NCBI GenBank assembly: GCA_044070495.1
Contig: JBIPSI010000005.1
Span: forward strand, 1 to 64,000
DNA from: Spirulina sp.
Lineage (GTDB): Bacteria > Cyanobacteriota > Cyanobacteriia > Phormidesmidales > Phormidesmidaceae
DNA: 64,000 nucleotides
Direction: 5' to 3'
Part shown: one piece after another, positions 30,328 to 48,577 of the stretch
Position numbering within the stretch: the first letter of the stretch is position 1
Layout: each line of letters begins with the position of its first letter
Made by a program: the position numbers and the translations under genes
The notes under the pieces: model-generated
What the model saw: only the letters and a program-made list of their open reading frames with translations
The model's database searches: none
What the model was told of the DNA's origin: nothing

Positions 30328-32079
30328 ATGGCGTTGGATATGTCCTCGGAGAACCTGGAGTCGCCCATGGATCTGGGCTTACCTCCGAGTCGCACTTCTG
30401 ATTCAGAGCAAGGAATCACCATTGTTGAAGAACTAGATGAAGGGGCTCAGCAGAAGTTGGAGGTGATTCAGTCGTTATTGGAACCCTGTGACCGGGCAAC
30501 CTACGGCGAAAAGCTGCGAGACGCCGCAGACAAGCTGGGGTGTTCTCTCCGCACGGTGCAGCGGTTGGTGAAGCGCTGGGAGGCGGAGGGGGTTTCTGCT
30601 TTTGTGACCGCTGGCCGATCTGACCAGGGGAAGCACCGCATTGCTGAGTTCTGGCAAGACTTCATCATCAAAACCTACGAGGCGGGCAACAAGGGCAGTC
30701 GGCGGATGACACCCAAGCAGGTGGCCGTTAGGGTGCAGGCGAAGGCTCGTGAGATGGAGGACGATAAACCACCGAGCTACAAAACAGTGCTGCGAGTGCT
30801 GAAGCCTGTCCTGGAGCGGAAGGAGAAGGCCAAAAGCATTCGCAGTCCTGGCTGGCGAGGCTCAACGCTGTCGGTTAAAACGCGGGATGGTGAAGATCTA
30901 GGGATTGAGTACAGCAACCAAGTTTGGCAGTGCGACCATACCCCTGCCGATGTGCTGTTGGTAGATCAGCATGGCAACCCTGTGGGACGGCCTTGGCTGA
31001 CGGTGGTGATTGATAGCTACTCCCGCTGTGTGATGGGGGTGAATGTGGGGTTCGATGCCCCGAGTTCGCAGGTGGTGGCGTTGGCGTTGCGGCACGCCAT
31101 GTTGCCTAAGCCGTATGGCCCGGAGTACAAGCTCCATTGTGAGTGGGGCACCTATGGTAAGCCCGTTCACTTTTTTACCGATGGGGGGCGCGACTTTCGG
31201 TCTAACCACATCCAGCGCATTGGGGCGGATTTGGGCTTTAGCTGCCATCTCCGGGATCGTCCACCGGAAGGGGGCATTGTCGAGCGGGTCTTTCGCACCC
31301 TCAATGATCAGCTCTTTTCGACCCTCCCTGGCTACACCGGATCGAACGTCCAGCAGCGACCAGAGGAGGCGGACAAGGAAGCGAGTTTGACCCTACGGGA
31401 GCTAGAGCAGTTGGTGGTGCGGTTCCTCTGCGACAACTACAACCAGTCGATTGATGCGCGGATGGGTGACCAAACTCGGTTTCAGCGCTGGGAAGCGGGG
31501 TTGATCGCACCCCCAGACCTGTTGGAGGAGCGACACCTCGACATTTGCTTGATGAAAGCCAGTCGCCGTACCGTGCAGCGCGGGGGCTACCTGCAATTTG
31601 CAAACCTGATGTTTCGGGGCGAGTATCTGGCGGGGTATGTCAGGGAGAAGGTATGGGTACGATTTAACCCCAGCGACATCACCACCGTTTGGGTCTATCG
31701 CCAGGAGGATAATCGCGAGGTTTTTCTCACCCGTGCCTTTGCCCAAGGGCTGGAAACAGAGCAGCTTTCCTATGAGGAAGCCAAGGCTAGTAGCAAGCGC
31801 CTCAGGGAGGCGGGCAAGGCCATCAGCAATGAGTCAATCCTGCAAGAGTCCATTGAGCGGGATGCCCTGCTTGCCAAGAAAAACCGCAAACAGCGTCGTA
31901 AAGCGGAGCAAGATTCTGTCAAAGCGCAGAAATTGTTAGAGGTTGCTCCCGATCCCCCAGAGTTGCCAGAGCGGTTCGATGATGTGGTCGAGGAGGACGA
32001 TGCGCTTAGTGGGGAGGAGGATCTGGATCTAGGTGCCTTCGAGCCGATTGATTTTGACGATATTCGTGGAGCGTGGTGA
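30328..32079 (+). CDS. tnsB: DDE transposase TnsB
   Basis: WQCDHT, FTDGGRDF, GIVER catalytic triad; N-terminal HTH SLRTVQRL. Confidence 0.95.
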   Translation: MALDMSSENLESPMDLGLPPSRTSDSEQGITIVEELDEGAQQKLEVIQSLLEPCDRATYGEKLRDAADKLGCSLRTVQRLVKRWEAEGVSAFVTAGRSDQGKHRIAEFWQDFIIKTYEAGNKGSRRMTPKQVAVRVQAKAREMEDDKPPSYKTVLRVLKPVLERKEKAKSIRSPGWRGSTLSVKTRDGEDLGIEYSNQVWQCDHTPADVLLVDQHGNPVGRPWLTVVIDSYSRCVMGVNVGFDAPSSQVVALALRHAMLPKPYGPEYKLHCEWGTYGKPVHFFTDGGRDFRSNHIQRIGADLGFSCHLRDRPPEGGIVERVFRTLNDQLFSTLPGYTGSNVQQRPEEADKEASLTLRELEQLVVRFLCDNYNQSIDARMGDQTRFQRWEAGLIAPPDLLEERHLDICLMKASRRTVQRGGYLQFANLMFRGEYLAGYVREKVWVRFNPSDITTVWVYRQEDNREVFLTRAFAQGLETEQLSYEEAKASSKRLREAGKAISNESILQESIERDALLAKKNRKQRRKAEQDSVKAQKLLEVAPDPPELPERFDDVVEEDDALSGEEDLDLGAFEPIDFDDIRGAW

Positions 32080-32912
32080 GCATGACACAAGCAAAGGCCT
32101 GGGCTGAGGTGCTAGGTGAGTCAACGCCGGATACGGACTCGCTACAGGCGGAAATCACCCGCCTACGGAAGAAAACCGTGTTGCCCCTAGAGCATGTCAG
32201 CCAGCTTCACGGTTGGCTGGATGGGAAGCGCAAGGCGCGTCAGTCTTGCCGCATTGTGGGGGAATCGAGAACTGGAAAGTCGAGTGCCTGTGAGGCGTAC
32301 TTTTACCGAAACAAGCCCACTCAAGCCACGGGCAAGAAGCCGATTGTCCCGGTCGTCTACATTCAGCCGCCACAGAAGTGCGGGTCGAGGGAACTGTTTA
32401 AGGAGATCATCGAATTTCTCAAGTATCGGGTGGCTAAGGGGACGGTCTCTGATTTTCGGGGGCGGGCCTTTGAGGTGCTGAAGGGCTGCGAGGTCGAGAT
32501 GATCGTCATCGACGAAGCGGATCGGCTGAAGCCCGAGACCTTTGCCGATGTGCGCGATTTTTACGACAAGCTGGCGATTTCGGTGGTCTTAGTCGGCACG
32601 GATCGGCTGGATGCCGTCATCAAGCGAGATGAGCAGGTGTATAACCGCTTCCGAGCCTGCTACCGCTTTGGCAAGCTCTCCGGGGAGGACTTTATCAAAA
32701 CGGTCAAGATTTGGGAGCAGAAGGTTTTGCTGCTGCCCGTGGCCTCTAACTTAACCAGCAAGGCGATGCAGAAAATTCTGATAGAGGCGACGGAGGGCTA
32801 CATTGGCCGCATGGATGAGGTACTGCGGGAGGCGGCGATTCGTGCCTTGAGCCAGGGGCACAAGAAAATTGAGAAGTCGGTGCTGCAAGAGGTGGCTAGG
32901 GAGTACAAATAA
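32073..32912 (+). CDS. tnsC: AAA+ ATPase TnsC
   Basis: GESRTGKS Walker A, IVIDEADR Walker B; start could be 32082. Confidence 0.95.
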   Translation: MVSMTQAKAWAEVLGESTPDTDSLQAEITRLRKKTVLPLEHVSQLHGWLDGKRKARQSCRIVGESRTGKSSACEAYFYRNKPTQATGKKPIVPVVYIQPPQKCGSRELFKEIIEFLKYRVAKGTVSDFRGRAFEVLKGCEVEMIVIDEADRLKPETFADVRDFYDKLAISVVLVGTDRLDAVIKRDEQVYNRFRACYRFGKLSGEDFIKTVKIWEQKVLLLPVASNLTSKAMQKILIEATEGYIGRMDEVLREAAIRALSQGHKKIEKSVLQEVAREYK

Positions 32913-33415
32913 TGGTGGAGTCTGGGATTCAGCCCTGGTTATTTGAGGTGGAACCTTACCCAGGCGAAAGCCTGAGCCATTACCTAGGGAGGTTTCGGCG
33001 ACGCAATCAACTGACACCGGGCGGGCTGGGAACCATGGCGGGCATTGGGGCGGTGGTGGCCCGTTGGGAAAAGTTTCACCTCAATCCCTATCCCACCCAG
33101 GCGCAGTTTGAGGCGCTGGGGAAGGTGCTAGGGCTATCGGCGGAGCGCCTTTGGGCCATGCTGCCACCTCAAGGAGAGGGGATGGTGCATGAGCCGATTC
33201 GGCTGTGTGGGGCCTGCTATGGGGAGAGTCCCTGTCATCGGATGGAGTGGCAATACAAGTCGGTTTGGAGGTGTGAGCGCCACAACCTCAAGCTACTCTC
33301 TAAGTGCCCTAACTGTGGGGCCAAGTTTAAGGCTCCAGCCCTTTGGGAGGATGGCTGCTGTAGTCGTTGCAAGATATCGTTTGCCATGACCGAAAAACTT
33401 CAAAAATCTAGCTAG
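32912..33415 (+). CDS. tniQ: Minimal TniQ
   Basis: PYPGESLSHYLGRFRR, CGAC, CERH, CPNC, C..C zinc motifs. Confidence 0.95.
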   Translation: MVESGIQPWLFEVEPYPGESLSHYLGRFRRRNQLTPGGLGTMAGIGAVVARWEKFHLNPYPTQAQFEALGKVLGLSAERLWAMLPPQGEGMVHEPIRLCGACYGESPCHRMEWQYKSVWRCERHNLKLLSKCPNCGAKFKAPALWEDGCCSRCKISFAMTEKLQKSS

Positions 33416-34035
33416 GGCAAACTAATCTTACTTAACTCAAGCTTGTAAAACTCTTGCTTTTCATCTAAATCTTTATCCTGAAAGATCTCGTTGACTTCTG
33501 AGCTGGAGAGGCATTTTTTCTCGCAAATTATATCAGCAATGTGCGAGATTAAATCCCAATTTTCTTCGACGATTTTCCTCACTGGGTCAAGAAATCTATC
33601 GCTAGATCCTATAGGAAATCCTAGCTTCGTATATTTAGAAAAATCATCTCCTCCGCCTCCTACACTAAGAGAAGCAAAAGGCTCTTCAAATCCCCTGAAA
33701 ATATCCTCTGCTATGGATCCAGCAAATGCTATACAAGTGAAAATATATTTTTCCATCAAGTCTTCGATCAACTCTGGTGGAGTATAAGGAATGTAATTAG
33801 TCTCTCCTCCATTGTCTTTATCTATGGAAGCATTAATTACATCATATCCAAATAGTCGAATCATGAATATATGTCCTGCCTCATGATGGGCAGTTGCCTT
33901 TGCTTCTTCTTCCTGAGACTTGAATGGATTCATTGTGATTATTTTCTTTGTTAGATCGTCTGGAATTCCTGATAATCCATTCCGAATTGAATGCGATTTG
34001 CTTTCCTGATGAAGGGGAGTGCTGATAGAGATCAA
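33412..34035 (-). CDS. HEXXH zinc metallopeptidase (M41/M50-like), AT-rich
   Basis: TAHHEAGH, AGSIAE, GGDD; true start may be ATG 33933. Confidence 0.7.
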   Translation of the reverse strand: MISISTPLHQESKSHSIRNGLSGIPDDLTKKIITMNPFKSQEEEAKATAHHEAGHIFMIRLFGYDVINASIDKDNGGETNYIPYTPPELIEDLMEKYIFTCIAFAGSIAEDIFRGFEEPFASLSVGGGGDDFSKYTKLGFPIGSSDRFLDPVRKIVEENWDLISHIADIICEKKCLSSSEVNEIFQDKDLDEKQEFYKLELSKISLP

Positions 34036-34068
34036 TGCCTTCAGCGAAAATATGGGTCTTCACAATTA

Positions 34069-37000
34069 CTAAGGACTCGACTGAGCTTCTTCAAAAACTT
34101 TCTCGGCAAAATCTGGATCTTCCTGCATTTTCTTGAAAAGAGCGGGCATTTTGTCGTAGTGCTGTTTGAGAAACTGCTCTTCACTCTCGGGCAAACGGCC
34201 AGCTAGATAAATCAATTCTTCTTCATCGAGTTCTAAAATACGAGCAATCGCCCGAATAGCATCTTCCTTGGGCGGATAGTCGGCTTTATCGTTCTCTAGC
34301 TTTGACAGATAGGTGAAATTTAGTCCCACCGAGTCAGCTAGCTCTCGCTGGCTCAGCCCTTTTGCCTTCCTCGCCTGGAAGATTACCTGCCCAAAGGTTT
34401 CATCGGTGGTGTACGGGGCGACCGGCTCTCCAGCTCTTTGGGCACGGGGTTGGCGCTTGGTTTTGCCCTGCACCTCTACCCAGCCAATCAGTTGGGTAGA
34501 GAAAGCCCGTTCGGCTTGGGCTAGCCCCTGCTGCTTTAGCTCTCGGTTGAGCATGGGTTCCAGGTATTCGTGAAGTAGTCTTTGCCGCTCTTTGACTTCC
34601 CAGTTAGGGACGGCAGGGGCTTGCATCAAGACATCAATGCCTTTGCGTTCTAGGGTGGGTAGGCGTTTGCCGTTGGGGTTGGTTGCTAGAGATTTGAGGA
34701 CAAACTGTTGTTCCCCTCGTTGTCCCAAAACCTCTATCAACCACCAGGTCAACACCGCTGGCATTTCGTCATCGCCAATGACCGAGGCTCCCAGCTCTTC
34801 AGGCACAACGTTTTGCCACTTCTGTAGTGCCTGCTCCATCACCGGATGGTCTAGCCCCATGAGGTCGAGGGTTTCATTTTCGCAGGCCAGTTCCCGATTG
34901 GTGGTAAATCGCAGTAGCTTGGTGCCCTGGTCACCTCGGAGTTCAAACAGGCTGTCGCCAATGCGGACGACACTCTGTTTTTGATCTTCGAGGGCTGCCG
35001 ATAGGAAACGGATAATGCGATCTAGGCTAGCGCTGACATCGGCGAAGGGTTTGTAGTCATCAATGTTGAAGCCTTCCAGGTCTTGGAATAGCTCAAAGAC
35101 CACTTTGCGGGCCTCTGCTGCGTTGGAAAGGGCATTGGCTAATTCGTGCTGGGTGCGCTTCAAGGTTGGGTCAGACAGCGCCTGTTGATAGAGTTTTTCG
35201 TAGCTCAGGCGTTCGGAGAGTTGGCCGAGAATTTGAGCTTTCAGATCTTCGGCCACTTTGCCATGTTCGTCTACCTTGCCGACGGCTTTGGCAATTTCTT
35301 CTAGCTTTTCTTCCAGCAGCAGAAAGATTTTGCCCTCGATGGTGTCTGAGAGCACGAGGTTATAGACCTGGGCCGTATGGTTTTGCCCATAGCGGTGGAT
35401 GCGACCAATGCGCTGCTCGATATCCATCGGGTTCCAGGGCAGGTCGAAGTTAAACAGCACCCTAGCAAATTGCAGGTTGATGCCCTCTCGCCCTGCTGCG
35501 GTACAAATCAGCACGCGGGGGCCATTCTTTTGGCGGAATTTGCGCTCAGCGGCCAGCTTAGAGCCATGGTCGCCCCCTCGGAGCACTACTACGCCCTGGC
35601 CTGGGTAGGTGGTTTCGATTTCTGCGGCTAGCAGATCGACGGTGCCCAGGTAGGTGGCGAAGATCACGATTTTTTCGGTGGGGTTCTGCTTCCAGAGGTT
35701 GCCCAGGGCGATCATGAGTTTTTCGACCTTGGTTTCTCGGGCGACGGGGAAACTTTCTAGCAAAGCATTAATCCGATCGCGCTCTTCAGGCAGGGCAATT
35801 TTGACGAAGCTCACGGCAGCAGCTTCGGCCTGGCTGGCGTTGATTTCGCCGCTGTAGGCGTCCGAGCCGATTTCTAGTTCACCATCGTCGATCTTTTTGA
35901 GAATGGCGAGCTTAGCCTCGGCTAAGATGCGATCGCACTCGCCCTGGCCCATGGCATTCTCAGGCAGTTGGTACATCTGGCGAATGAGGTATCGAGCCTC
36001 ATCGAGCAGGCGCTCGCGGTTGTCGATGTCGAGTTCTTGGTCGCGCAGGATGGCTTCGTGGATGGTGAGCATCAGCAGCCGTCGCCGCAGGGTGAGGCGC
36101 ACCGCCGCGAAGCTAGAGGCGGCAATTTTTTGAAAAATGGCCATGATGAAGCCCAAGGCCCGTGCCTGGTTGCCCTGCTGCTTGGCTAGGTCAAAGCCAT
36201 CCTGGAGGTATTGGCAGAGCTTGGTGTAGAACTCCCGCTCTTCGTCGGCCATGGTGAAGGATTCGGTTTCCACTTGGCGGCGGGCAAACAGGGTGGAGCC
36301 GTCGGGCCTACAGGCATCGGCCTTGGTGCGGCGAAAGACAATGGTATTGAGGCGATGGCGATTTTCCACCATGTCGTCGGGGTTTTTGAACAGGGTGGAG
36401 TCGAGCAGGTTGGTCAGCATCCAGAAGCGGAAGTGATCGCCCTGGTGGGGGGTAGCGGAGAGCAAGATCAGATCGCGGGTGTGGTCTTTGAGCTTTTCGG
36501 CCAGCTTGTAGTTTTCGGTTTTGCGAACCCGGTTGCCGCTTTTGTAGGCATTGAGGTGATGGGCTTCGTCAAACACCACCAGATCCCAGGTGGGGGCATC
36601 GAGCAGCTTTTTAATGCGGCTAGTGCGTTTGAGGGTGTCGATGCTGACGATTAAATTGTCGTGTTTCTCAAAGGCGTTGGATTTACGGTCAAACACATCG
36701 CCTTCGCTGCCAAAGACTTCAAAATTGAGGTTAAAGACTTCGTTGAGTTCGCGATGCCAGTTGTTGACCAGGCCCGCTGGCACCACCATGAGGGCGCGGT
36801 TGAGTTCTGAGCGGCTGGCCAGTTCGCGCAGCAGCAGGGCGGTTTCAATGGTTTTGCCTAGGCCCACTTCGTCGGCGATTAGGTAGCGGCGGGGGCTGTT
36901 GGTGGCGATGCGGTGGGTAAGCACCACCTGGTGGGGCAGCAGGTCAATTTTGGCGGCGGTGAGGGCGGCGGCGCTTTCCATCAGGGGCAGGGCGTGGGCT

Positions 37001-37239
37001 TCGTGGACGAGCCAGAGCTGTCGCAGCCGTTCCCAGGTGCCAGAAACGTTGTGGATGATGCGCTCGTTTCTGGAGAGTTGGGGGGTGACGCTGGAGAGGG
37101 GCAGTTGCCGTTCGCCGCTGCCAAAGAAGACTCGCACGTAGCCGTTGCGGGGCGCTTCTAGCACCACCCCTTCGCCAAATTCGGCGTGGGTGATGCGCTT
37201 ACCGGGTTGGAGGCTGGCTTCGAGCAGTGGGTTATCCAT
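34069..37239 (-). CDS. SNF2/RapA-like helicase with C-terminal XRE HTH fusion
   Basis: ADEVGLGKT, DEAH, SATPH, EGINLQ, QRIGRIHRYGQ; tail RKAKGLSQRELADSVGLNFTYLSKLEN. Confidence 0.9.
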   Translation of the reverse strand: MDNPLLEASLQPGKRITHAEFGEGVVLEAPRNGYVRVFFGSGERQLPLSSVTPQLSRNERIIHNVSGTWERLRQLWLVHEAHALPLMESAAALTAAKIDLLPHQVVLTHRIATNSPRRYLIADEVGLGKTIETALLLRELASRSELNRALMVVPAGLVNNWHRELNEVFNLNFEVFGSEGDVFDRKSNAFEKHDNLIVSIDTLKRTSRIKKLLDAPTWDLVVFDEAHHLNAYKSGNRVRKTENYKLAEKLKDHTRDLILLSATPHQGDHFRFWMLTNLLDSTLFKNPDDMVENRHRLNTIVFRRTKADACRPDGSTLFARRQVETESFTMADEEREFYTKLCQYLQDGFDLAKQQGNQARALGFIMAIFQKIAASSFAAVRLTLRRRLLMLTIHEAILRDQELDIDNRERLLDEARYLIRQMYQLPENAMGQGECDRILAEAKLAILKKIDDGELEIGSDAYSGEINASQAEAAAVSFVKIALPEERDRINALLESFPVARETKVEKLMIALGNLWKQNPTEKIVIFATYLGTVDLLAAEIETTYPGQGVVVLRGGDHGSKLAAERKFRQKNGPRVLICTAAGREGINLQFARVLFNFDLPWNPMDIEQRIGRIHRYGQNHTAQVYNLVLSDTIEGKIFLLLEEKLEEIAKAVGKVDEHGKVAEDLKAQILGQLSERLSYEKLYQQALSDPTLKRTQHELANALSNAAEARKVVFELFQDLEGFNIDDYKPFADVSASLDRIIRFLSAALEDQKQSVVRIGDSLFELRGDQGTKLLRFTTNRELACENETLDLMGLDHPVMEQALQKWQNVVPEELGASVIGDDEMPAVLTWWLIEVLGQRGEQQFVLKSLATNPNGKRLPTLERKGIDVLMQAPAVPNWEVKERQRLLHEYLEPMLNRELKQQGLAQAERAFSTQLIGWVEVQGKTKRQPRAQRAGEPVAPYTTDETFGQVIFQARKAKGLSQRELADSVGLNFTYLSKLENDKADYPPKEDAIRAIARILELDEEELIYLAGRLPESEEQFLKQHYDKMPALFKKMQEDPDFAEKVFEEAQSSP

Positions 37240-37297
37240 GGCGGTGGGGGAGGGAACTCCGGTGGGGGTGGGGAAATTTGAGGCAACCTGGGCCAGG

Positions 37298-37822
37298 TTA
37301 GGAAATGCGCTCTAGGTAAAGACCAATCCAATCGGGGCCTTCGAGGTCGGTGTTGGTGGGGGCATCGGCACGCAGAAGGTGGCCCGCATCGGTGGCGGCT
37401 CCGGCCCACAGGGCACGGCCCATGGCGAGGGTTTGGGCATTGTACCTGCCGCCACAGGCCCAGGTGTAGGCGTTGGTGGCGGGCTGGTGTTTGATGCGTT
37501 TTTGCCCCTGGGGGAGCCAGAAGAGCAACCCGGCTTGGCCTTCGTACTCGTCTTGGAAGCTGAGGATGGCGGGCTGGATAGTGTCTTCGAGGAATTGTTG
37601 GCCGTCGTCGGGGGAGAGGCTATCGAGGGCACCGTCTAACCCGGCGACGACGAGGGTGTTGCCATGGCTGGAGGGCAGGTCATCGGGCCAGTGCTCCTGT
37701 AGGCGCAGAAACTGTCGCAGGGAATAGACTTCGTCGGGGGCGGCGATGGTGGCCAATTTTTCGGCATTCCACAAGAGGGCCATGCCGTTTTTATGCCAGT
37801 TGGGGTTTCGCACGGGTCGCAT
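37298..37822 (-). CDS. Accessory protein of the cargo operon, unknown function
   Basis: 174 aa tightly packed in the operon; TLVVAGLD resembles a degenerate Walker-B strand. Confidence 0.7.
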   Translation of the reverse strand: MRPVRNPNWHKNGMALLWNAEKLATIAAPDEVYSLRQFLRLQEHWPDDLPSSHGNTLVVAGLDGALDSLSPDDGQQFLEDTIQPAILSFQDEYEGQAGLLFWLPQGQKRIKHQPATNAYTWACGGRYNAQTLAMGRALWAGAATDAGHLLRADAPTNTDLEGPDWIGLYLERIS

Positions 37823-37828
37823 GGTGAT

Positions 37829-40800
37829 TTACTCCCCAAAGATGGACAGTTGGGTGGTGGTTTCTTGGGGATGCTTGCGCTCCCAAGTTTGCAAAATGCG
37901 GCGAGCCAAGGTGGCAGCCTGACGAATTTCGGCGGTGGCTCCCCGATCTTTGTGCCAGTCGAGCAGGGCGGCGAGGGCAGGGTGGGGTCGAAAGTTGGGG
38001 TTGTTGAGGGTGTCGTTGGCGTTGATGCCGCTGTTCTCGAAGCAGGCTCCGATGAGGATCATGGCTTGGTCGTAGTCGTTGGTGAGGCGCTGGCGGTGTT
38101 TACCATGCCAGGTTTGGGCGATTTCGAGGGGGGAGGTGAGGTAATACACTTTTTTCTGCTGCTTGCACCAGCCGCGTTCTTCAAATTCTTGGGGAGAAAT
38201 GCCCGTGCCGCGCAGGTATTTTTGCATTTGGTCGCGGGGTAGCTCGGTTTGGCGATCAAAGATTCTCAGAAATTGCCGGGTAAAGGGTTCTGCTTCGATG
38301 GGCGGCAGCACGTCGTTGGTGCTGTTTTCTTCGTCCAAAAGCTGAAAGATACCCACCAGCGCTTCTTTAACGGAAATGGGTTTGCCTTCGTCTAAATACA
38401 CTTTGCCATAGTGGCGAGAGTAATATTCTAGGGCTTTGCCTCGCTTAATGACTTGCAGATCGGCCTTGGGCAAACCTGCTTTTTCGTGCAGTTCTAAAAT
38501 GCCTTGCAGTTGGCGAACAGCGTTCAGTACCTCCCGGCGCATTTTGCCCCAGCTTACGGGTTGGGGTTCTTCCATGCGCTTGCGGCAAACGTGGACAATG
38601 TCGTATTCAATCTTTTGAGAACCAAAGGTACCCGGCTTTGAGCCTTCTCCTTTCGTTTCGTCAGAACGAATTGGGTAAGCTTGCTCTAGATAAAAGCCCG
38701 CATCAAAAAGACTTTCAAGGACATCGACCCACGGTTCATCTAAACTATGATGGAATGTAAAAGCTAGTATTCCTCCTGGCTTAAGCAATCGATTTGACTC
38801 GCTCCAGCACTGAGTTAAAAGACGCTTGTAAAAGCCATCAGGATCTTCAGGTTCCCGAGCCTTGTTTGAAAGGCATTCAAGAGCCTTTGGTGAAAATCTT
38901 GCGTCAAAATGCTCAGGATACTTTTCTTTCAGAATCAATTTAAGCCAAACATAGAAAAAGTCTGAAAGCTCTGAGTAATGAAGTAGCCCCCCAAATGGAG
39001 GATCAGTTATTACTGCATCCAAAGATTCACTGTCTCGACTTTTGATACTTGTACAAGAGGACGACTCTATCTCAAAGCTTGTTTCAACAACAGAATCAAA
39101 ACAATTAACTTTAATACTTTTCCCGCTGATTTCATCTGCAAGATAAGTTGGCAAAGATTTTTTTCCAATCAACTCCCAGGGCGAATTAAACCACGCATGG
39201 CCCTTGCGTAAGATCTCCACAGTTGAAGCCCAGGGGCCATACCCCATTGGGCTAAAAACTCCTACCTCAACAACATTAGATTTTGGATGAAAATTACTGT
39301 TTGACAATGCTGGAGCAAGTTTGTCATAGGTCATATGCCAAAAGGAAAACATGCACTGATTGCGAAGATACTGCTGAAATCCCCCTAATACGTATTCTTT
39401 GACTTTCCAAGAGTGATTATGTAAATTATCTTCGCTTATAGCTCTCAATATCTGAGCATGACCCAGTAACTGGCGGCTGTTGAACATCTTCCACCAATGG
39501 GTATACCCATGATTTGGAATCCCCCCATTATTCATGGAAGTCATAAACCCATAGGGCACCTCACTGCGAGGCCAAAAATCAGCTAAATCTTTCTCTTTGC
39601 GGGCTTCCCATTCCCGATCTGCTGCATCAAACCCAGCCGTGTTGGCTACGGGCGCAAAAAAGCGGCCCCCATAGGGCTTGTCTTCCTTCGCGCAGTCTGG
39701 GCAATAGCCCTGAATGGCATACATCGCCACCGGGCCAGTTTTGCGCGTTGCTTTTACCGTCGTCAAAATGTCCTGAGTTGTCCCACAGGCTCCACAGGCA
39801 TAGTGCGACTTCCTCGGCACCGTGCCCACATCCGTTTTTATCGTAATGCCCGTATCTGGGCAGATAACTTCCTCCGGTAATTCACCCCTCACCTCCAGCA
39901 GCTTTATCTTGCTCGCCCGTTCCCGGTTCCAAGCTGCTGTCGCCTCTGGCGTATCCGTCGCGCTGCCGCCATATTCCGTTCCATCCGGTGACATCTTCGG
40001 CGACCCTGCCAACCACTGCGGATGCACCAACAACGACAACGACACCTTCTTCTTCTGCCATCGGGGCATCACCATACCCTTCGATAGCTGCCGATGGCCA
40101 CAGTGCGGGCACGTCACCTTATTTTCCGCATCCAACACCGCATAGGGCGCTTCACCCTCCGCCACCACCAGCGACACCCCCGGTGCCATGCGGGCCTCCT
40201 GCGGTTCCTCATCAAACTTGCCGCCACACTGCTCACACTCCCGATCCAGCCATGCCTTCACCGTCAGCGTTTTCACCGCCATCACCGGGCTGCTCATAAT
40301 CGGTGTGCGGTGGCCACAGCCCGTCACCTGGCAAGGGCCATGCTTCGCCCAAAACACATAGATAATCTCCGGGCCATCGTAGCGATAATCCTTCCGTTCC
40401 TCCGGCGTCAGGCCCAGCGGGTCAAAGGTCTCATCCATCACCCGATTCGTGGAAAGCTGCGTCCACTTGCCCTTGTGCCCCCTAGGGCAATCGCAGGCAT
40501 AGAACGGCATAATCTGCGGCTTTACCTCCGCCTCAATATCCGCCAGCAGCGCCTCCACTTCTTTGATGTCTACCTGGGCCAGCTCATTCTTCACCACAAA
40601 CCAGGCCACCGGGTTTAGGTCTACCCCAAACATCTGCATCCCCAGCCGCGACCCCTCCACAACGGTGGTGCCCCCGCCCATAAAAATATCCGCCACCTTC
40701 AGATGGCTCAGCGCCCCCTTCTTCTGGTGGTTGGCGTAGTACACATCCCACACCGCCTTCGCCGCCTCCGCCGGGTCATCCGGCGCTTTCATCGCCGCCG

Positions 40801-41089
40801 CCAGCAGCAGCGCCCGAAACACACTCGACCGCCGCCGCGCCCACCACTTCGACATTTGGTAAATCGGCTTGCCCGCATTGCCCTCAATCGCCGCAATCTG
40901 GTTAATCGGCAAAATCGGGAAGTCTACCTCCAGGCACGTCTTAGGCCGATTGGGGTCAGAGAAATCCACCGTCTCCACCGCTACCGGACGGCCTGCCCCC
41001 ACCGCCTTGGCCACCTGCTCCGCCAGCCACTCTTTTTTGGTTTGCTTCTTCTCTCGTGCCACGGTTGCCCTATCCTTTGCTGATTTCAA
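37829..41089 (-). CDS. DUF1156-type amino DNA methyltransferase with Zn ribbons
   Basis: KWWARR, DIFMGGGTT (motif I), TDPPF (motif IV), many CxxC, LKPGG.L.FTFHH. Confidence 0.88.
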   Translation of the reverse strand: MKSAKDRATVAREKKQTKKEWLAEQVAKAVGAGRPVAVETVDFSDPNRPKTCLEVDFPILPINQIAAIEGNAGKPIYQMSKWWARRRSSVFRALLLAAAMKAPDDPAEAAKAVWDVYYANHQKKGALSHLKVADIFMGGGTTVVEGSRLGMQMFGVDLNPVAWFVVKNELAQVDIKEVEALLADIEAEVKPQIMPFYACDCPRGHKGKWTQLSTNRVMDETFDPLGLTPEERKDYRYDGPEIIYVFWAKHGPCQVTGCGHRTPIMSSPVMAVKTLTVKAWLDRECEQCGGKFDEEPQEARMAPGVSLVVAEGEAPYAVLDAENKVTCPHCGHRQLSKGMVMPRWQKKKVSLSLLVHPQWLAGSPKMSPDGTEYGGSATDTPEATAAWNRERASKIKLLEVRGELPEEVICPDTGITIKTDVGTVPRKSHYACGACGTTQDILTTVKATRKTGPVAMYAIQGYCPDCAKEDKPYGGRFFAPVANTAGFDAADREWEARKEKDLADFWPRSEVPYGFMTSMNNGGIPNHGYTHWWKMFNSRQLLGHAQILRAISEDNLHNHSWKVKEYVLGGFQQYLRNQCMFSFWHMTYDKLAPALSNSNFHPKSNVVEVGVFSPMGYGPWASTVEILRKGHAWFNSPWELIGKKSLPTYLADEISGKSIKVNCFDSVVETSFEIESSSCTSIKSRDSESLDAVITDPPFGGLLHYSELSDFFYVWLKLILKEKYPEHFDARFSPKALECLSNKAREPEDPDGFYKRLLTQCWSESNRLLKPGGILAFTFHHSLDEPWVDVLESLFDAGFYLEQAYPIRSDETKGEGSKPGTFGSQKIEYDIVHVCRKRMEEPQPVSWGKMRREVLNAVRQLQGILELHEKAGLPKADLQVIKRGKALEYYSRHYGKVYLDEGKPISVKEALVGIFQLLDEENSTNDVLPPIEAEPFTRQFLRIFDRQTELPRDQMQKYLRGTGISPQEFEERGWCKQQKKVYYLTSPLEIAQTWHGKHRQRLTNDYDQAMILIGACFENSGINANDTLNNPNFRPHPALAALLDWHKDRGATAEIRQAATLARRILQTWERKHPQETTTQLSIFGE

Positions 41090-42065
41090 TAAACGGCGAC
41101 GCTACCTCCAACACACTCAGCCCCCCGTGGGTGAGCGTGGGGTAGCCGCTTTGGCCCTTCCATTTGCGACGGCCCAACACATAGCGATGGCACCCCCGGC
41201 GCGAGTCCAACACCACGTCAATCGGCGGGTTCCAGTTACCGAGAGGCTCCTTGGGGTCAGCCCATCGGCCATTCTTAAATGCAGATTTGAGATAATCGGC
41301 CTGTTCCCCATCCGCATTGGCAAACAGACTGCTAGCCGCATAGCCGTGGTCAGAGGTGATCACCAACCGCCGCCCCGTCGCCAGCCGCTCCACCAAGGCC
41401 CAAAAATCATCGCTGGTGAGGTTTTTTTCTGCCTCTAGAGCTAGCTTATCTAGCCCCGACCCAGCTTTTTCACCCAGCTCATGCACCCGATTGTCGGGCC
41501 AGTGGTGCCACAGCACCCAGTGGCGCTCTGAACCGATCATCGTTGAACAATCGATCCAGGGCAAATCTAAGCTCTCGGTCACTGCCCCTGCCAGCCGGTG
41601 CGAGTGCCCCGCCTGGTTATTGGCCAGGGCCGACCGCTGGGCAAACCCTAACGCTTGGGCAAAGGGGGTGGTATCGGCGGGCAGTTCGGCCCCCGTCACC
41701 TTGGTCTGTAGAATCTGAAACCCTCGCGCTTGGGCACCCTGGAGCAACCAGGGTACCTCCCGCAGGGAAAGGCCATCTAAAATCAGCACCGCTTTGCCCC
41801 CCAGTTGGCGATTCCACCAACTCGCTAGGGCATCGGCGGTGTGCTCCACTTCGGCATCGTAGGTCTGCCACAGATCCCAGGCGGCAGAGGCGAGGAACAG
41901 GTCAACGGCCTCCAGATCGCGATCGCGCTGCACGATGGTCGGGCCAACCTTGCCGGGCGGTACTGGCGGGCTAAAGATCTGCCACGCATAGGCAAAAATC
42001 GCCGCCCACCCCGCCGAGGCCGGAGCCGTTAAGGCCTTTTGCAGAAGTTCTAGGGAAGCCGTCAT
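41070..42065 (-). CDS. PglZ-like alkaline-phosphatase-superfamily protein
   Basis: LILDGLS, LPADT, VITSDHGY, HGGLSVLE..P. Confidence 0.75.
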   Translation of the reverse strand: MTASLELLQKALTAPASAGWAAIFAYAWQIFSPPVPPGKVGPTIVQRDRDLEAVDLFLASAAWDLWQTYDAEVEHTADALASWWNRQLGGKAVLILDGLSLREVPWLLQGAQARGFQILQTKVTGAELPADTTPFAQALGFAQRSALANNQAGHSHRLAGAVTESLDLPWIDCSTMIGSERHWVLWHHWPDNRVHELGEKAGSGLDKLALEAEKNLTSDDFWALVERLATGRRLVITSDHGYAASSLFANADGEQADYLKSAFKNGRWADPKEPLGNWNPPIDVVLDSRRGCHRYVLGRRKWKGQSGYPTLTHGGLSVLEVASPFIEISKG

Positions 42066-44842
42066 TAGCCTTCCTCCTTATCGAGTTCGAGGCCATAGGT
42101 CAGCCCGTCGGGCAGGTTTTTCAGCAGCTTTTGCAGTTGTGCCCCGGTCAACGACTCCACGCTAAGGGTCAGGTTTTTCACCTGGGATCCGGGGTTGATG
42201 CCCCACTCGTCAGTGGCCTTGGCATAGAGGTTGAGGGCAGAGGTGGCCGGGGTGAAACGGCGAGACACCTGGGCTGGTGGCGTAGAGTCAAAGATGGATC
42301 CGCCCATTGATCCACCCGTGGTACCTACCCCTGTGCCTGGGTCGGGTTCGTGGGGTATGGGTGGTGGTGGTGTGGTGGGCGGGGGGTAGGGGGTGTCTCC
42401 GGTCGGTATCGTCGGGGGCGATCCACCAGAATCGGGCGACACAATGCTGGTACTGCTCGATCCTGTGGAGGCGGGCGGGGCAGAGGAGCCGGACGACGAC
42501 CCATCGGAGGTGGGGGCGGCCTGGGGCAGTTGCAGGTAGGTTTCTTCTAGGTGTCTGCCGCTGGGGAGCTTTGCCTTCATGCGGTGATAGGCAGCGGATT
42601 CCTCTTCTCCTGGCTTGGCCTGGATGGTTTCTCGCCCCTGGAGGTTGATGGCCAGTTTGCCCTGGGCACAGAGGCGAATTAGCTTTTCCTTCACCTGCAC
42701 TTCCCCTAGCCAAGGAATGCAGTCTCTGCCGTTCGTGCGGGGTTCTTGCAGTTCGCTCAACAGCTTGCTCACCGAGTCGCCATTGGTCGTTGCCTCCAGC
42801 ACCTGCTCCTCAAAGTCTTCAGGAATAAAGATGTCCCGACGCAGGCGTTCTTCAATAGCATCGGGAATCTTAGATCCCTTAGCCTGCAACCCTTCCACCA
42901 CAAACTGACAGCGGTTCGGTTCGCCATAGTTCCAGGTTTGCAGAATCGCAAAGCGATCAAAGCGATCCTGAAGGGCCTCCTGCAACTGTCGATGATATTT
43001 CTTTTCAAACCCCTTATATTCAGGGCTTTGCCCTTGCCATTCCTTGGCTTTGAGCACGGCCCGCGCCAAAACAATCAAGTCGCGGTCGTAGTAGGCGTTT
43101 GAGCTGCCTACTTTGGGCAGCAGAAACCGAATGGTATTGCGGCGTTTGGGCACATGCTCCTTCAGCCAAGGGCCAAGCCGTTCATTCAGCTTAGCCACCT
43201 CCTCCGGAATCACCAGGATAGGCAATCGGGCATCCCACTGGTCGGGGTGTTCAGCGGGGTCGAGTTCTCCCCACGGATTGCTAAGCCATTGGGTAGGCAG
43301 CACAATCACCCGGAAATCTCCCCGCAGATCGCCGCTGCCCGCCAGGGCGTAGCGAATCTCGTTGCGCAGGTGCAACTGATCGGAACCGTCCTCAAACAGA
43401 CGATCGTTACGGGCAAAGGCCATCAGCTTGGTCTGGGGGTTGTCCTCTACCTGGAACACCAGGCGATCGCCCAGCCGATGAATGTTGAAGCTGTTCTCGG
43501 CGATGGTCTCTAGCTCAACCTGGAAGGCGTTTTCATCAATGGCGCGATCGCGGGTGATGTCGAGCTGGAGCGTTGCTGGATCGGCCCCGGTTAGCCGACT
43601 AACAGAAAGAGAACGCACCCATAGCGCCCCCATAACTTCCGACAGATGGGGCACCTCAGCATCTGGCCGCTTCACCGCCTCGCGGACAGCGACTAGGTTG
43701 CGCTGGGCCTTATCCCTAAGACTAAGATGACGCTGCCCCACCACCGAATCGAGCAATGAAGCTACCCCACTGACCTCATCATCGACCCGAAAATCAGCGG
43801 CGGTAATCAGCGGGCGATCACTATGGCGCTTGAATAAGTCAGCCAGAATTTTGATCAGGTCGCGGGTGTCCTGAGCCTCCGTGGCCACTAATATCTGGTC
43901 TTCCAACAACTGGAGCAGATGGGGAGCAAAGGGCCAAGCCTCAATAAATTCCTGCTGTTTGCGCTCCTGTTCGGTGGGCGGCACTGCTCTAAGCCGAAAA
44001 TACTCCGCCACATGGGCCTGGGTAAGGGATTCGATGGCTGACTCAGCCACCTGCATACGGTTCTCAAACAGTCGATGCAGCAGCAGTTTCCGGCGTTCGG
44101 AAGCGGCGTTAGGCCCCTCAAAGTCAATCAGGACAGGGTTCACCCGGTGGATTTGTAGATAGGCATCGGTTCCACCATTACGGACAGAAACTACCAGGGA
44201 CAGTAGATCGGGGTACTCCTGAGCAATTTCAGAGAGCATCTGAATAAAGCTAAACGCCCAGGTACGTGCCGGTAGCCGTTTGCTGTTTGTCAGGGCGTCG
44301 TACCAGGTCTGGAACTCGTCCAGAATCAGAACAATAGGTTGCTTCTGTAAAAGTTCTATAACGAGGTCATGGGGGAGAATGTCTGTTTTTTTGTCTCCCA
44401 TGCCTTCCCACTTACCCCGAATGTAATTCCCCTCCGGGTGTTCCTCCAGAATTAAATCCCATAAGTATTTGTACCTCTGGCGGTTGAGGTTGACGCTAAT
44501 GACCTGGGTATCGGTGCGGGGCCGTAGCCCAGCGATGTAGGGGCTACCAAGCTGCGCGGCCCAGTAGTTTAGCCATGTTGCGATTGCGTCAGGGGTCTTG
44601 ATGGCATGGTAGAGAGCCGCCATCAGGTGAGATTTACCTTTGCCGCGCTCACCCATCAACACCACCGGTCGCCCTTCCCCCGGCGCGAGGGCTGCCAACG
44701 TCTTGAGCAAATCGGTAGAAGGATAGGTAATGGCAAGGAACTGCTCAGCGGGAAGCTTACTCGCCTCCACCAAGTCGATTTGCGTTCCCTTGAGTCGTTT
44801 TCCTTCAAATTCTGAACGCAGTTGTAGGCCTAGCATAGGCAC
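42065..44842 (-). CDS. DUF499/BrxC-like P-loop ATPase
   Basis: FLAITYPS, GERGKGKSH Walker A, LILDEFQ Walker B, WPFAP, RDLIKILA. Confidence 0.82.
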   Translation of the reverse strand: MPMLGLQLRSEFEGKRLKGTQIDLVEASKLPAEQFLAITYPSTDLLKTLAALAPGEGRPVVLMGERGKGKSHLMAALYHAIKTPDAIATWLNYWAAQLGSPYIAGLRPRTDTQVISVNLNRQRYKYLWDLILEEHPEGNYIRGKWEGMGDKKTDILPHDLVIELLQKQPIVLILDEFQTWYDALTNSKRLPARTWAFSFIQMLSEIAQEYPDLLSLVVSVRNGGTDAYLQIHRVNPVLIDFEGPNAASERRKLLLHRLFENRMQVAESAIESLTQAHVAEYFRLRAVPPTEQERKQQEFIEAWPFAPHLLQLLEDQILVATEAQDTRDLIKILADLFKRHSDRPLITAADFRVDDEVSGVASLLDSVVGQRHLSLRDKAQRNLVAVREAVKRPDAEVPHLSEVMGALWVRSLSVSRLTGADPATLQLDITRDRAIDENAFQVELETIAENSFNIHRLGDRLVFQVEDNPQTKLMAFARNDRLFEDGSDQLHLRNEIRYALAGSGDLRGDFRVIVLPTQWLSNPWGELDPAEHPDQWDARLPILVIPEEVAKLNERLGPWLKEHVPKRRNTIRFLLPKVGSSNAYYDRDLIVLARAVLKAKEWQGQSPEYKGFEKKYHRQLQEALQDRFDRFAILQTWNYGEPNRCQFVVEGLQAKGSKIPDAIEERLRRDIFIPEDFEEQVLEATTNGDSVSKLLSELQEPRTNGRDCIPWLGEVQVKEKLIRLCAQGKLAINLQGRETIQAKPGEEESAAYHRMKAKLPSGRHLEETYLQLPQAAPTSDGSSSGSSAPPASTGSSSTSIVSPDSGGSPPTIPTGDTPYPPPTTPPPPIPHEPDPGTGVGTTGGSMGGSIFDSTPPAQVSRRFTPATSALNLYAKATDEWGINPGSQVKNLTLSVESLTGAQLQKLLKNLPDGLTYGLELDKEEG

Positions 44843-44999
44843 GCTCTAACTAAAGTTGGCAAACGATATCCAGTAGGGGCAGGCACTCGATGGGGACAAA
44901 GGGAACCCTTGTCAGATCCACAGATAACTGAAAAGGCTCCAATTTCGACCAGACAAACCGGGTCAGGATACCCCCAGATGAATCCATAGTACCCAAGAC

Positions 45000-45076
45000 T
45001 TGAAAAAAACATCAACTCGATGTTGACGTAGAAATCAACATCGGTTAGCTTGGTGGACAGTTGACGAAAAAATCAA
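45000..45076 (+). promoter_or_regulatory. Sigma70-like promoter overlaid by three TTGA-N8-TCAA operators
   Basis: Operators 45000-45015, 45023-45038 (9-bp perfect arms 45018-45043), 45061-45076; -35 TTGACG 45023-28, 17-bp spacer, -10 TAGCTT 45046-51. Confidence 0.7.
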
Positions 45077-45092
45077 GTTTTGGAGATTACCG

Positions 45093-46487
45093 ATGTCTAC
45101 ACCACCTTCTGTTTCCCTCAAGGCTCACGCCCCTGTCGCTGTCCGGCAGGTCAGCTTGTTTGATGAGCTAAGCGATTCGGGCTTTCACCCGCTCCATGTT
45201 CCCTTAGATGTGCTGGTCAGCATTCCAGCCAGCATCCGGCAAGACGAAATCCGATTGAATGACTATCTCATCCACGGCCTAAAGCTCGGCCTAGGGGCAC
45301 TCGCTCAGGCTGCCGTAAGCCTCGACACCACCGAGTACGTAGCCACTATCCAGCGGGAGTTTGCCGCCATTCAACAGTCCTGGAGCCAGCTCCAGACTGA
45401 GAGCCGCCAAGAGCTAGAACAGCTCATTGACCAAGAGTTGACCGGTGAAAATTCGGCCCTCGCCACCGAGCTAAAGCGCTATCTTGCTGACGGGGGCACC
45501 TTCACCAAGGCACTAGAGGATATTCACCGCAAACTTGCCGATCCCAATAACTTGACCAGCATTCCTGGCCAGGTCAAAGCGCTTTTGTCGGCAGCGTTTG
45601 AGCAGGCCGATGCCCCCTTCCGCAAAGCCCTAAGTATCGCTGACCACAACTCCCCCCTAGGCCAACTGCTGGAGCACCAGCAGCGAGAGCTAGCCAACCA
45701 CAAGGCGGCGATCACTCAACTGCACACCAACCTACATCAAGAGTTTAAGGAGCAGTTCGAGCTGATCAAAAACGGCCTGAACATTCAGGCACTGCTGGAG
45801 CAGCAGCAGGCAGAGCAATCGGCCCTGCTGGAAAAGAGCATCCAAAAAGGTCGCCCGTTTGAGGTTGTGGCCGCTGAGTGCCTAGACCAGGCCAGCCGCT
45901 ACTGTAAAGATATCGTCACTCCCCTAAGTGACGAGTTGGTGGAGGGCACTGGACGCAAGGTGGGCGATGTGCTGGTGGAAATCTTCGATGAAGCCTGCGC
46001 CGATATCAAGATCGTCGTAGAAACCAAGGCGGGTCAGTACAACATCGGCGGCAAGCGGGGGCTAATCAAACAAATGCAGGAGGCGATGGAGTTTCGCAAT
46101 GCCCAGGCTGCGATCGCCGTCGTTCACCGTGATTACGCCAAGCAAAACCAAGCCGTCTACAGCGAGTTAGGTCACAACCTTGTCATGGTTGCCGTAGATC
46201 CTGACAATGAGGAGTCTGGGTTGTTGCCCCTAGAGCTGGCCTATCTCTCTACTCGCTCTAAGCTGATTGCGCTCCACCGCAAAGGCAGCTCAGAGCAGCT
46301 TGATCTCAATGCTATCCAGCAAACTATCGATCAGCTATCGGCTTGCCTCAACAGCGCCCAGGCCATGAAAGCCAACTGCACCGCCGCCAAAACCAGTGTC
46401 GATAAGGTCTACGCAGATATTCAGCAGATGGAGTCAGGGGTCAAGCAGCAACTATCGACTCTCCGCTCTCAATTGGGGCTGGCTTAG
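45093..46487 (+). CDS. Coiled-coil protein with putative PD-(D/E)XK nuclease domain (RmuC/DUF2130-like)
   Basis: Long helical region, then KGRPFE..GD(VLV)..VVETK motif; GGAG RBS. Confidence 0.65.
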   Translation: MSTPPSVSLKAHAPVAVRQVSLFDELSDSGFHPLHVPLDVLVSIPASIRQDEIRLNDYLIHGLKLGLGALAQAAVSLDTTEYVATIQREFAAIQQSWSQLQTESRQELEQLIDQELTGENSALATELKRYLADGGTFTKALEDIHRKLADPNNLTSIPGQVKALLSAAFEQADAPFRKALSIADHNSPLGQLLEHQQRELANHKAAITQLHTNLHQEFKEQFELIKNGLNIQALLEQQQAEQSALLEKSIQKGRPFEVVAAECLDQASRYCKDIVTPLSDELVEGTGRKVGDVLVEIFDEACADIKIVVETKAGQYNIGGKRGLIKQMQEAMEFRNAQAAIAVVHRDYAKQNQAVYSELGHNLVMVAVDPDNEESGLLPLELAYLSTRSKLIALHRKGSSEQLDLNAIQQTIDQLSACLNSAQAMKANCTAAKTSVDKVYADIQQMESGVKQQLSTLRSQLGLA

Positions 46488-48505: not shown

Positions 48506-48577
48506 AACCAAAAGCCTAGGCTATAATGGGCAAACAGCTTTGAACCCGACCGCTGAACCTAGACAACCGAATGATTC

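Follow-up and report, generated by a model that had tools for sequence, protein, structure and literature searches.

A CRISPR-associated transposon of Spirulina sp. carries a Type-3 BREX-related operon with a helicase-fused XRE repressor that may control a divergent nuclease gene

Within the first 64,000 nucleotides of contig JBIPSI010000005.1 of a Spirulina sp. genome (assembly GCA_044070495.1; this whole stretch of DNA is hereafter referred to as the window), a type V-K CRISPR-associated transposon (CAST) carries a defense operon related to the BREX (bacteriophage exclusion) systems, in which the SNF2 helicase ends in a transcriptional repressor domain of the XRE family. The operon is divergent from a gene encoding a predicted PD-(D/E)XK nuclease, and the control region between the two includes three copies of the palindrome TTGA-N8-TCAA. 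Our preferred reading, to which we assign a probability of roughly 0.6, is that this cargo is a Type-3 BREX-Related (BR) system in which the helicase-tethered repressor would control the nuclease gene, and probably the operon as well, with an adjacent HEXXH peptidase as a non-obligatory component. A preliminary description, based on the DNA letters and their translations, had instead proposed a protease-gated system in which this peptidase cleaves the repressor domain and thereby releases the nuclease.

The fused domain was identified through Pfam HTH_3, which matches residues 955–1009 of the helicase (1.3e-10), i.e., the helix-turn-helix (HTH) that had been noted in the preliminary description. 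No nuclease family was matched along the helicase in Pfam, the HTH being its extra C-terminal domain. Of 400 other cyanobacterial genomes, 62 encode homologues of this XRE domain (E ≤ 1e-10; 46–68% identity), almost always as free-standing open reading frames (ORFs) of 114–160 aa, and the recognition helix is nearly invariant between the fused and standalone forms. By these comparisons, the fused domain is a complete CapH/DdrO-like XRE repressor. The helicase is otherwise 66.6% identical over residues 7–926 to SNF2 proteins of Klebsiella and Citrobacter plasmids, and since this match stops at residue 926, the HTH tail is an extra relative to the plasmid helicases. One could consider this fusion as a relic with no regulatory role, i.e., the neutral by-product of a deletion that brought a neighboring XRE gene and the helicase together. 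The GC content of the HTH segment (47.9%, vs 56.8% for the helicase body) would be compatible with this scenario, as would the fact that 113 of the 120 helicase relatives listed are ~922 aa long and have no HTH fusion. However, the fusion is open in frame with a near-invariant recognition helix, cognate operators are conserved beside it, and it is kept in six further clusters among these 120 homologues, at 58–83% identity, which argues against an assembly accident. We thus consider a relic very improbable: judged from this conservation, the fusion is real and selected, and represents a clade-specific novelty.

Next, we evaluated the distribution of the palindrome. The three copies next to the operon (sites 1 to 3, at 45000–45015, 45023–45038, and 45061–45076) are the only matches to TTGA-N8-TCAA in the window, where 0.82 would be expected, and 4 of 100 shuffles of the window reached three matches anywhere. 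Across the genome, the motif was found 123 times in 5.31 Mb, and the sole place with ≥2 copies within 120 bp is this trio. The free-standing XRE homologues show the same association: for the 29 best loci, at least one copy was found within −300 to +30 of the XRE gene in 27 and at least two in 21, and 63 of the 70 copies present in the 94.8 kb of these loci fall within these 9.6 kb, although the loci come from related genomes so that these counts overstate independence. Even with this kinship, the enrichment is still very large. Given the presence of the motif upstream of 27 of the 29 XRE homologues, along with the near-invariant recognition helix, it is very probable that the fused repressor uses the three palindromes as its operators, which fits the earlier claim that operators lie in this divergent promoter region. 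A CvkR-type CAST regulator was also considered as the protein binding these palindromes and was rejected, since the motif tracks the XRE family instead. No MerR-family match was obtained with Pfam or PADLOC in the eight cargo and cas12k ORFs, and an NCBIfam CarH (MerR-type) match to the product of the divergent gene (E 5.9e-4, 19 bits vs a cut-off of 400) was taken as spurious. As an observation in its own right, the free-standing loci (L033/L056, L034/L057, L035/L059, and L058–L084) represent a widespread cyanobacterial module, composed of an XRE gene and an M78 peptidase gene with TTGA-N8-TCAA, which faces a PDDEXK_1 gene followed by a long prokaryotic Argonaute (pAgo) gene in two loci, and a recurrent 326–349-aa protein without Pfam family in 11 of the 19 divergent ORFs scanned (19 loci, with nine short divergent ORFs of less than ~110 aa left out).

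The position of the operators suggests how they may act. Sites 2 and 3 are located 17–70 nt before the start codon of the divergent gene, and 180–235 nt from the start of the ATPase gene that opens the operon. In our own reading of the sequence, a rightward promoter is predicted with a −35 element (TTGACG, 45023) inside site 2, a −10 element (TAGCTT) at 45046, and site 3 at about +1, and a leftward promoter with a −35 element within site 1 and a −10 element at 44982–44987. This reading fits the conservation of the control region, in which the operators are kept and the adjoining spacer is replaced: all three sites remain in place in a related metagenome contig (locus L036) in which the remaining spacer has diverged, and contigs of three metagenome runs (X1, X3, and X10) have 97–99 other letters instead of 44887–44971, with the match resuming at 44972–44974, just before site 1. 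A comparable layout exists for one of the free-standing modules (L033), in which the operators lie 23 nt before the PDDEXK_1 gene that precedes the long pAgo gene, i.e., they are arranged as in the window.

The divergent gene encodes a 464-aa protein which itself has no match in Pfam or PADLOC and no meaningful one in NCBIfam. Its AlphaFold2 model (predicted local distance difference test, pLDDT, of 79) shows an alpha/beta domain (residues 250–397) surrounded by a long helical assembly. While a Foldseek search with this model yielded no match at E ≤ 0.001, a nuclease fold was seen on re-alignment: over residues ~250–397, VIA-align gave Z scores between 10.1 and 9.0 to VC1899 (10.1), Can2 (9.8), McrC (9.8), PaqCI (9.4), and Bax1, with 116–133 residues aligned for the first four. 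In an alignment of 40 family members, G253, D273, G291, D292, and E310 are invariant and K312 is conserved in ≥90%. The model and the conserved D292/E310/K312 are consistent with the earlier suggestion of a PD-(D/E)XK domain, and we predict this protein to be a PD-(D/E)XK nuclease. Pfam DUF2130 was reached by 3 of the 40 family members, and a PDB search with the family profile returned chance or coiled-coil matches only.

The family of this putative nuclease extends well beyond the window, with five close homologues at 73–81% identity and 367 representatives detected by phmmer at E ≤ 1e-3. A family member was found in 8 of the 400 other cyanobacterial genomes, and five of these loci were examined. 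In L052, the family member is flanked by tnsC and tniQ of a Tn7-like element, in L054 it is beside a HerA-like ATPase gene on a plasmid-like contig, and the neighborhood includes BrxL in one locus, a CHAT/DUF7019 gene in one, and housekeeping genes in one. From these contexts, the family appears mobile and defense-associated, with a link to BR systems that would be specific to the clade of the window. A small HTH-like gene is found just upstream of the family member in two of the five loci. In these (L052, 7425–9230; L053, 4709–6514), a 437-aa family member is preceded by a 128-aa HTH-like gene, the two small proteins being 91% identical, and the pair is associated with the tnsC/tniQ genes of a Tn7-like element in one genome and with a BREX brxL neighbor in a congener.

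Among closer relatives, profile scans for the 464-aa gene returned one locus from genome contigs and one from metagenomes. The latter, L036, encodes a helicase cut by the end of the locus, a 173-aa counterpart (66% identity) of the 174-aa protein of the window operon, the methylase, PglZ, and ATPase, and a divergent 463-aa protein, with proteins 66–74% identical to those of the window. The BR operon, operators, and nuclease gene thus occur together in this contig, with no cas12k within 830 bp. The former is a remnant in Almyronema epifaneia (L002, 9424–10681), in which helicase residues 862–1050 abut nuclease residues 248–463 as the result of one deletion spanning everything between, and in which the HTH tail is kept at 88–94% identity. 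Regarding the neighborhood proposed earlier, the HTH fusion, operators, and nuclease gene are kept across contigs of run X3, in which the peptidase is missing, and no homologue of the peptidase was found in Almyronema.

The operon and the nuclease gene share the divergent region in which the operators are located, so that these could just as well serve for autoregulation of the operon. A more restrictive explanation is that the fused XRE domain controls the BR operon only, the 464-aa gene being an independent cargo or defense gene, or being tied to the expression of cas12k. In the standalone modules, the operators are indeed found just upstream of the XRE gene itself, a classic autoregulation layout, members of the nuclease family occur in the unrelated contexts described above (the tnsC/tniQ of a Tn7-like element and a plasmid-like contig), and the 46488–46621 interval between the 464-aa gene and cas12k includes no promoter- or terminator-like site, nor any unusually stable fold (z 0.84). 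In addition, the main text describing Type-3 BR systems (PMC12839542) reports neighborhoods without conserved standalone nucleases, and presumes PglZ to be the primary effector. For the same reason, the helicase cannot be seen as simply "missing" its nuclease: the preliminary description had viewed the divergent gene as a separately encoded replacement, and a PD-(D/E)XK gene is predicted there, yet PglZ would be the presumed effector. On the other hand, sites 2 and 3 are much closer to the start of the nuclease gene than to that of the ATPase gene, the same operator-to-ATG geometry exists before the divergent nuclease-pAgo operon in L033, and operon, operators, and nuclease gene remain together in L036, with no cas12k in the 830 bp that follow. 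Overall, we regard control of the operon alone as rather unlikely.

The HEXXH peptidase encoded after the helicase was the centerpiece of the preliminary description. The ORF extends over 207 codons from a TTG, with HEAGH at residues 51–55 and a downstream acidic ligand candidate. Its probable start is, however, the ATG at 33933 (codon 35), where the corresponding ESM Atlas record also starts, leading to a 173-aa protein. Pfam Peptidase_M41 matches weakly (E 1.6e-3, 18.8 bits, under the cut-off of 29.9), alignment to FtsH over HEAGH is also weak (PDB FtsH, E 0.067), and the ESM Atlas model superimposes on M41 domains with TM scores of 0.70–0.77 over 139–159 residues. There is no AAA domain in these 173–207 aa, similar to ESM Atlas clusters of ~164–199 aa, so that this protein looks like a lone FtsH/M41-like domain rather than an M78 peptidase. 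By comparison, 23 of the 29 loci encode an M78 (ImmA/IrrE-type) peptidase downstream of the free-standing XRE gene. This count comes from a scan of 26 downstream ORFs, those of the three remaining loci being shorter than 60 aa. The window peptidase has no BLAST similarity to these partner M78 proteins and no Pfam Peptidase_M78 match at E ≤ 0.01, hence the partnership of the ImmR/ImmA or CapH/CapP type suggested earlier does not hold at the family level.

These data bear directly on the protease gate, in which a stress or infection signal would lead the peptidase to cut the XRE domain or its dimerization tail off the helicase and turn the nuclease on, with the M41-like enzyme as a non-orthologous replacement of the usual M78 peptidase. 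Such a pairing would follow the CapH/CapP, ImmR/ImmA, and DdrO/IrrE logic (10.1101/2022.04.27.489752), in which an XRE repressor is cleaved by its M78 metallopeptidase. A peptidase with intact HEAGH and an acidic ligand candidate stands exactly where this XRE family normally has its metallopeptidase, and neither PF06114 nor a custom profile derived from the 23 partner peptidases detected any M78 peptidase in this genome, which is 97% complete. Beyond the difference in family, however, the peptidase gene has a GC content of 37.7% (vs 56–57% for its neighbors) and is joined to the operon more loosely than the other genes, 33 nt after the helicase when counted from the TTG and 135 nt from the probable start. 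No homologue was found in the 400 other cyanobacterial genomes, so that among 401 it is present only in the genome of the window, and no relative was detected in IMG/VR or in the Almyronema genome, where the gene following the HTH remnant encodes a different, 181-aa protein with no family match (GNAT-like by eye). Among 5.8 billion proteins, a word-indexed search, which depends on shared 5-mers and may overlook remote homologues, retrieved nothing but a 150-aa copy with 100% identity. Most directly, in a 3.8-kb contig of run X3 (~96% identical), 58 letters separate tniQ (33376) from the helicase stop region (34079), instead of the 702 that hold the peptidase in the window, and a second X3 contig, equal in depth, extends from the ATPase gene across the operators and the 464-aa gene as far as cas12k. 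As contigs of runs X1 (98%) and X7 (94%) do include the peptidase region, the gene is polymorphic among close relatives. Taken together, this suggests that the peptidase is most likely a low-GC, foreign, strain-variable insertion and not an obligatory part of the switch, and the protease gate itself appears unlikely. A complex prediction between the HTH tail (residues 930–1056) and the peptidase (residues 35–207) scored 0.00 in two runs without controls, and provides no evidence either way.

The rest of the operon was assigned through family matches, which corroborate the earlier view of a methylase-based BREX/DUF499-type defense operon. The 925-aa ATPase is matched by Pfam AAA_16 (7e-8) and DUF499 (3.1e-6, 25.7 bits vs a cut-off of 23) and by PADLOC HmaC (3.9e-8), with a Walker A motif (GERGKGKS) at residue 64. 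The 1086-aa methylase is matched by Pfam DUF1156 (2.8e-6, 27.8 bits vs a cut-off of 24) and an N6_N4 methylase family, by PADLOC HmaB (7.9e-31) and PglXI (8e-20), and by NCBIfam DUF1156_antiphage (3.2e-24, 85 bits, far under the equivalog cut-off of 1000), and displays DPPF at residue 696. For the helicase, the best matches were Pfam SNF2-rel_dom (9.4e-22) and Helicase_C (1.2e-17) along with PADLOC HmaA (1.2e-97), BrxHI (6.5e-96), and DrmD (2e-72), and the GLGKT and DEAH motifs are present. The PADLOC trio of HmaA, HmaB, and HmaC is therefore matched in a single locus, accompanied by two further core genes. The first of these encodes a 331-aa protein with no match in the Pfam scan, an NCBIfam BREX_PglZ_4 match under its cut-off (E 6.6e-4), and chance or coiled-coil matches only in a PDB sequence search. 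ESM Atlas feature matches (0.97–0.98) nevertheless connect it to clusters of ~333-aa proteins in which 14–38% of the members carry PF08665 (PglZ), 27 of its 30 matches falling in these PglZ-carrying clusters, and ILDG and TSDHG motifs are present. This provides moderate evidence for a separately encoded, standalone PglZ. The second encodes the 174-aa protein, for which no match was found in Pfam, PADLOC, or NCBIfam, and for which a fold model from a two-sequence alignment was unusable (pLDDT 34.9), so that it is a candidate iSTAND by position alone.

The middle of the methylase gene differs between strains. In four of four metagenome runs, bins 38484–39571 had almost no cover at ≥80% likeness, with the rest of the operon covered, and the X3 and X10 contigs skip parts of 38260–40256. 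This strain-variable segment (~38260–39780) looks like a swapped target-recognition region, which would correspond to different methylation specificities in near-identical elements.

The same core is found, gene for gene, in a 26.7-kb locus of a Klebsiella plasmid (L085, NZ_CP007734.1), which encodes successively an HTH_17 protein, a DUF499 protein, a 339-aa protein, SIR2 and ATPase proteins, a DUF1156 protein, a 166-aa protein, and a 935-aa SNF2 protein. The five window proteins are 56, 50, 64, 48, and 67% identical to their counterparts, in the same order, the value of 48% for the 174-aa protein being over its residues 1–142. In this Type-3 BR-like operon (251879–265338), the first gene is a separate 82-aa HTH_17 gene, and SIR2-family and ATP-binding genes are embedded between PglZ and the methylase.

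Several points have to be set against our preferred reading, in addition to the kinship of the 29 XRE loci mentioned above. First, a DUF499 system adjoined the nuclease gene in none of the five loci examined, and neither this gene nor the peptidase had a counterpart in the 26.7-kb Klebsiella locus, hence the nuclease may be an independent neighbor. Second, a scan for consensus promoters across 44700–45200 returned none, and its two "terminator-like" minus-strand hairpins correspond to the palindromes themselves. Third, the evidence for co-occurrence comes from the window, L036, metagenome contigs, and one deletion remnant, i.e., from fairly close relatives, and L036 ends at helicase residue ~793, before the position of the HTH. 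Finally, the peptidase is present in two of the three relatives with contigs covering the spot, and since it occupies the M78 slot of a genome without M78, it could be a functional replacement.

Under the preferred reading of a helicase-tethered repressor, the methylase would mark host DNA, and the ATPase, helicase, and PglZ would presumably restrict unmarked DNA, by analogy with related systems. The repressor attached to the helicase would bind the three operators. At sites 2 and 3, which cover the predicted −35 and +1, it would repress the nuclease gene, and at site 1, which covers the predicted leftward −35, it would probably repress the operon that encodes it. Nuclease expression would in this way depend on how much BR helicase is present or on the state that it is in. 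Repression might not be relieved at all, in which case the circuit would provide simple homeostasis, or it might be relieved by the M41-like peptidase where present, or by the helicase leaving the operators on invader DNA. The last option can be extended into an activity-coupled switch without any protease, which we view as doubtful. In this case, the XRE domains of idle helicases would sit on the operators and keep the backup nuclease gene repressed along with the operon, until engagement of the system pulls the repressor off, either because the helicase is recruited to unmethylated invader DNA or because it is trapped by a phage anti-BREX protein. The coiled-coil nuclease and more BR machinery would then be expressed, and perhaps cas12k by read-through. 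If true, this would be a defense system reporting its own engagement or inhibition directly to transcription.

As for the origin of this arrangement, the ancestral cassette may have consisted of an XRE gene, possibly with its M78 peptidase gene, separated by the operators from a divergent nuclease gene, similar to the modules facing nuclease-pAgo operons in other cyanobacteria. A BR operon would have been inserted between the operators and the XRE gene. Fusion of the latter to the helicase, and loss of the M78 peptidase, would have followed.

The locus thus offers a conserved case of a complete CapH-like repressor fused to a core defense enzyme, and a handle on the regulation of BREX-related systems, including the question of whether the state of the main machinery is coupled to a "backup" nuclease. 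The comparison also assigns TTGA-N8-TCAA to a cyanobacterial XRE/M78 family detected in 62 of 400 other genomes. It further calls for caution, as a HEXXH peptidase beside an XRE repressor is not automatically its partner: the one described here is from a different family, and is present in some near-identical strains but absent from others.

All seven cargo ORFs of the preliminary description were confirmed with the same positions and sizes (Table 1). The "one tightly coupled run" proposed there is valid for the five genes from ATPase to helicase, with overlaps of 1 and 21 nt and gaps of 6 and 58 nt, and not for the low-GC peptidase gene with its wider gap. The identification of the block as type V-K CAST cargo was likewise borne out, since it is flanked by tnsB-tnsC-tniQ and by cas12k, followed by CRISPR repeats and a tRNA-Gly gene. 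The CAST is inserted at this tRNA-Gly, with the BR operon between tniQ and cas12k. Given the sequence between the 464-aa gene and cas12k, the latter might be expressed by read-through from the operator-controlled promoter. To the left of the CAST, at 26621–27380 and 27456–29871, a nucleotidyltransferase and HEPN pair resembles a toxin–antitoxin system, and the same region encodes a 628-aa protein, matched by AfsR-type models and by NCBIfam FxSxx_TPR (5.7e-57), as well as an Arm DNA-binding domain in a 150-aa ORF.

Table 1 Features of the CAST and its cargo, with positions in the 64-kb window.
Feature	Position	Strand	Basis or remark
tnsB, tnsC, tniQ of type V-K CAST, left of cargo	30328..33415	+	Pfam Mu-transpos_C/rve, TniB/AAA_22, TniQ
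Lone FtsH/M41-like HEXXH peptidase domain (predicted), 207 aa from TTG	33412..34035	-	Strain-variable insertion
SNF2 helicase ORF including fused XRE, 1056 aa	34069..37239	-	Pfam, PADLOC
XRE-family repressor (HTH and C-terminal helical tail), helicase aa ~941-1056, in-frame fusion	34069..34419	-	
Swi2/Snf2 helicase body, aa 1-~940, without nuclease domain	34420..37239	-	
174-aa protein in Type-3 BR "iSTAND" position	37298..37822	-	Position only
DUF1156-type N6-adenine DNA methyltransferase, 1086 aa	37829..41089	-	Pfam, PADLOC
Short standalone PglZ-like phosphatase/nuclease, 331 aa	41070..42065	-	NCBIfam (weak), ESM Atlas, motifs
DUF499-type AAA+ ATPase, 925 aa, operon gene 1	42065..44842	-	Pfam, PADLOC, identity to Klebsiella locus
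Regulatory block: three probable operators and predicted divergent promoters, conserved	44972..45092		
464-aa coiled-coil protein with predicted PD-(D/E)XK domain, distantly DUF2130-like	45093..46487	+	
cas12k and CRISPR array, right of cargo	46622..49296	+	NCBIfam V_Cas12k 870.9 bits, cut-off 150
Four 38-nt CRISPR repeats	49045-49296		
tRNA-Gly, attachment site beyond CRISPR array	49540-49610	-	

Finally, we compared the locus to described systems. DUF499-centered BR systems were defined by Rakesh & Krishnan (NAR, January 2026, PMC12839542), whose Type 3 combines a DUF499 ATPase, a DUF1156 methylase, and a Swi2/Snf2 helicase after loss of its nuclease fusion, a trio equated with PADLOC Hma, along with a separate standalone PglZ, near-universal in 569 taxa, and an iSTAND gene in 82% of taxa. 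The window operon shares the ATPase, the methylase, the nuclease-less helicase, the short separate PglZ, and the small gene in iSTAND position, and by these family assignments, and by position for the small gene, its five-gene core matches a Type-3 BR system, gene for gene. The preliminary description had raised the question of a full match to a described system. This holds for the core and not for the rest: relative to the Type 3 of that text, the window helicase has a C-terminal XRE repressor, the operon adjoins a divergent, predicted PD-(D/E)XK gene with three probable cognate operators, and the whole is carried by a V-K CAST. XRE, ImmA, CapP, metallopeptidase, repressor, and DUF2130 have no occurrence in the main text of PMC12839542 (and "Cro" a single, irrelevant one), and no repressor-helicase fusion accompanied by cognate operators next to a nuclease gene was found in print across the main texts consulted, whose supplements may list such cases. 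PMC12839542 also reports that nuclease genes tend to be located close to those BR helicases that have no nuclease fusion, and that standalone PD-(D/E)XK genes beside BREX or BR loci are common "auxiliary/backup nucleases", the wiring of which to a core component is absent from its text. By its long helical part and its restriction-endonuclease-like domain with D...ExK, the 464-aa protein resembles DUF2130/coiled-coil PD-(D/E)XK nucleases. Compared to canonical BREX (types 1–6), the window system likewise has a methylase, a PglZ, a large ATPase, and a helicase (as in types 2, 3, 5, and 6), whereas its ATPase is of the DUF499 type and not BrxC/DUF6079, its PglZ is short and standalone, and none of its ORFs matched BrxA, BrxB, BrxC, or BrxL (Pfam, PADLOC, and NCBIfam, E ≤ 0.01).

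Both the core system and its setting are therefore already known, as is the XRE/metallopeptidase logic. BREX was reported among the cargo of 40 Tn7-like transposons, with cyanobacteria among the phyla (Benler et al., mBio 2021, PMC8649781), and the window adds to such defense cargo a specific BR case located between tniQ and cas12k, DUF499 being mentioned 0 times in the main text of that study. For CapH/CapP-type modules, Lau et al. (10.1101/2022.04.27.489752) mention a CapH-CapP fusion beside DISARM, which is not a repressor-helicase fusion. The cyanobacterial XRE family analyzed here resembles these modules through its upstream palindromes and usual downstream M78 peptidase, in the layout that they describe. 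The window differs from them in that the repressor is fused to a defense helicase, and in that the adjacent peptidase is M41-like and strain-variable.

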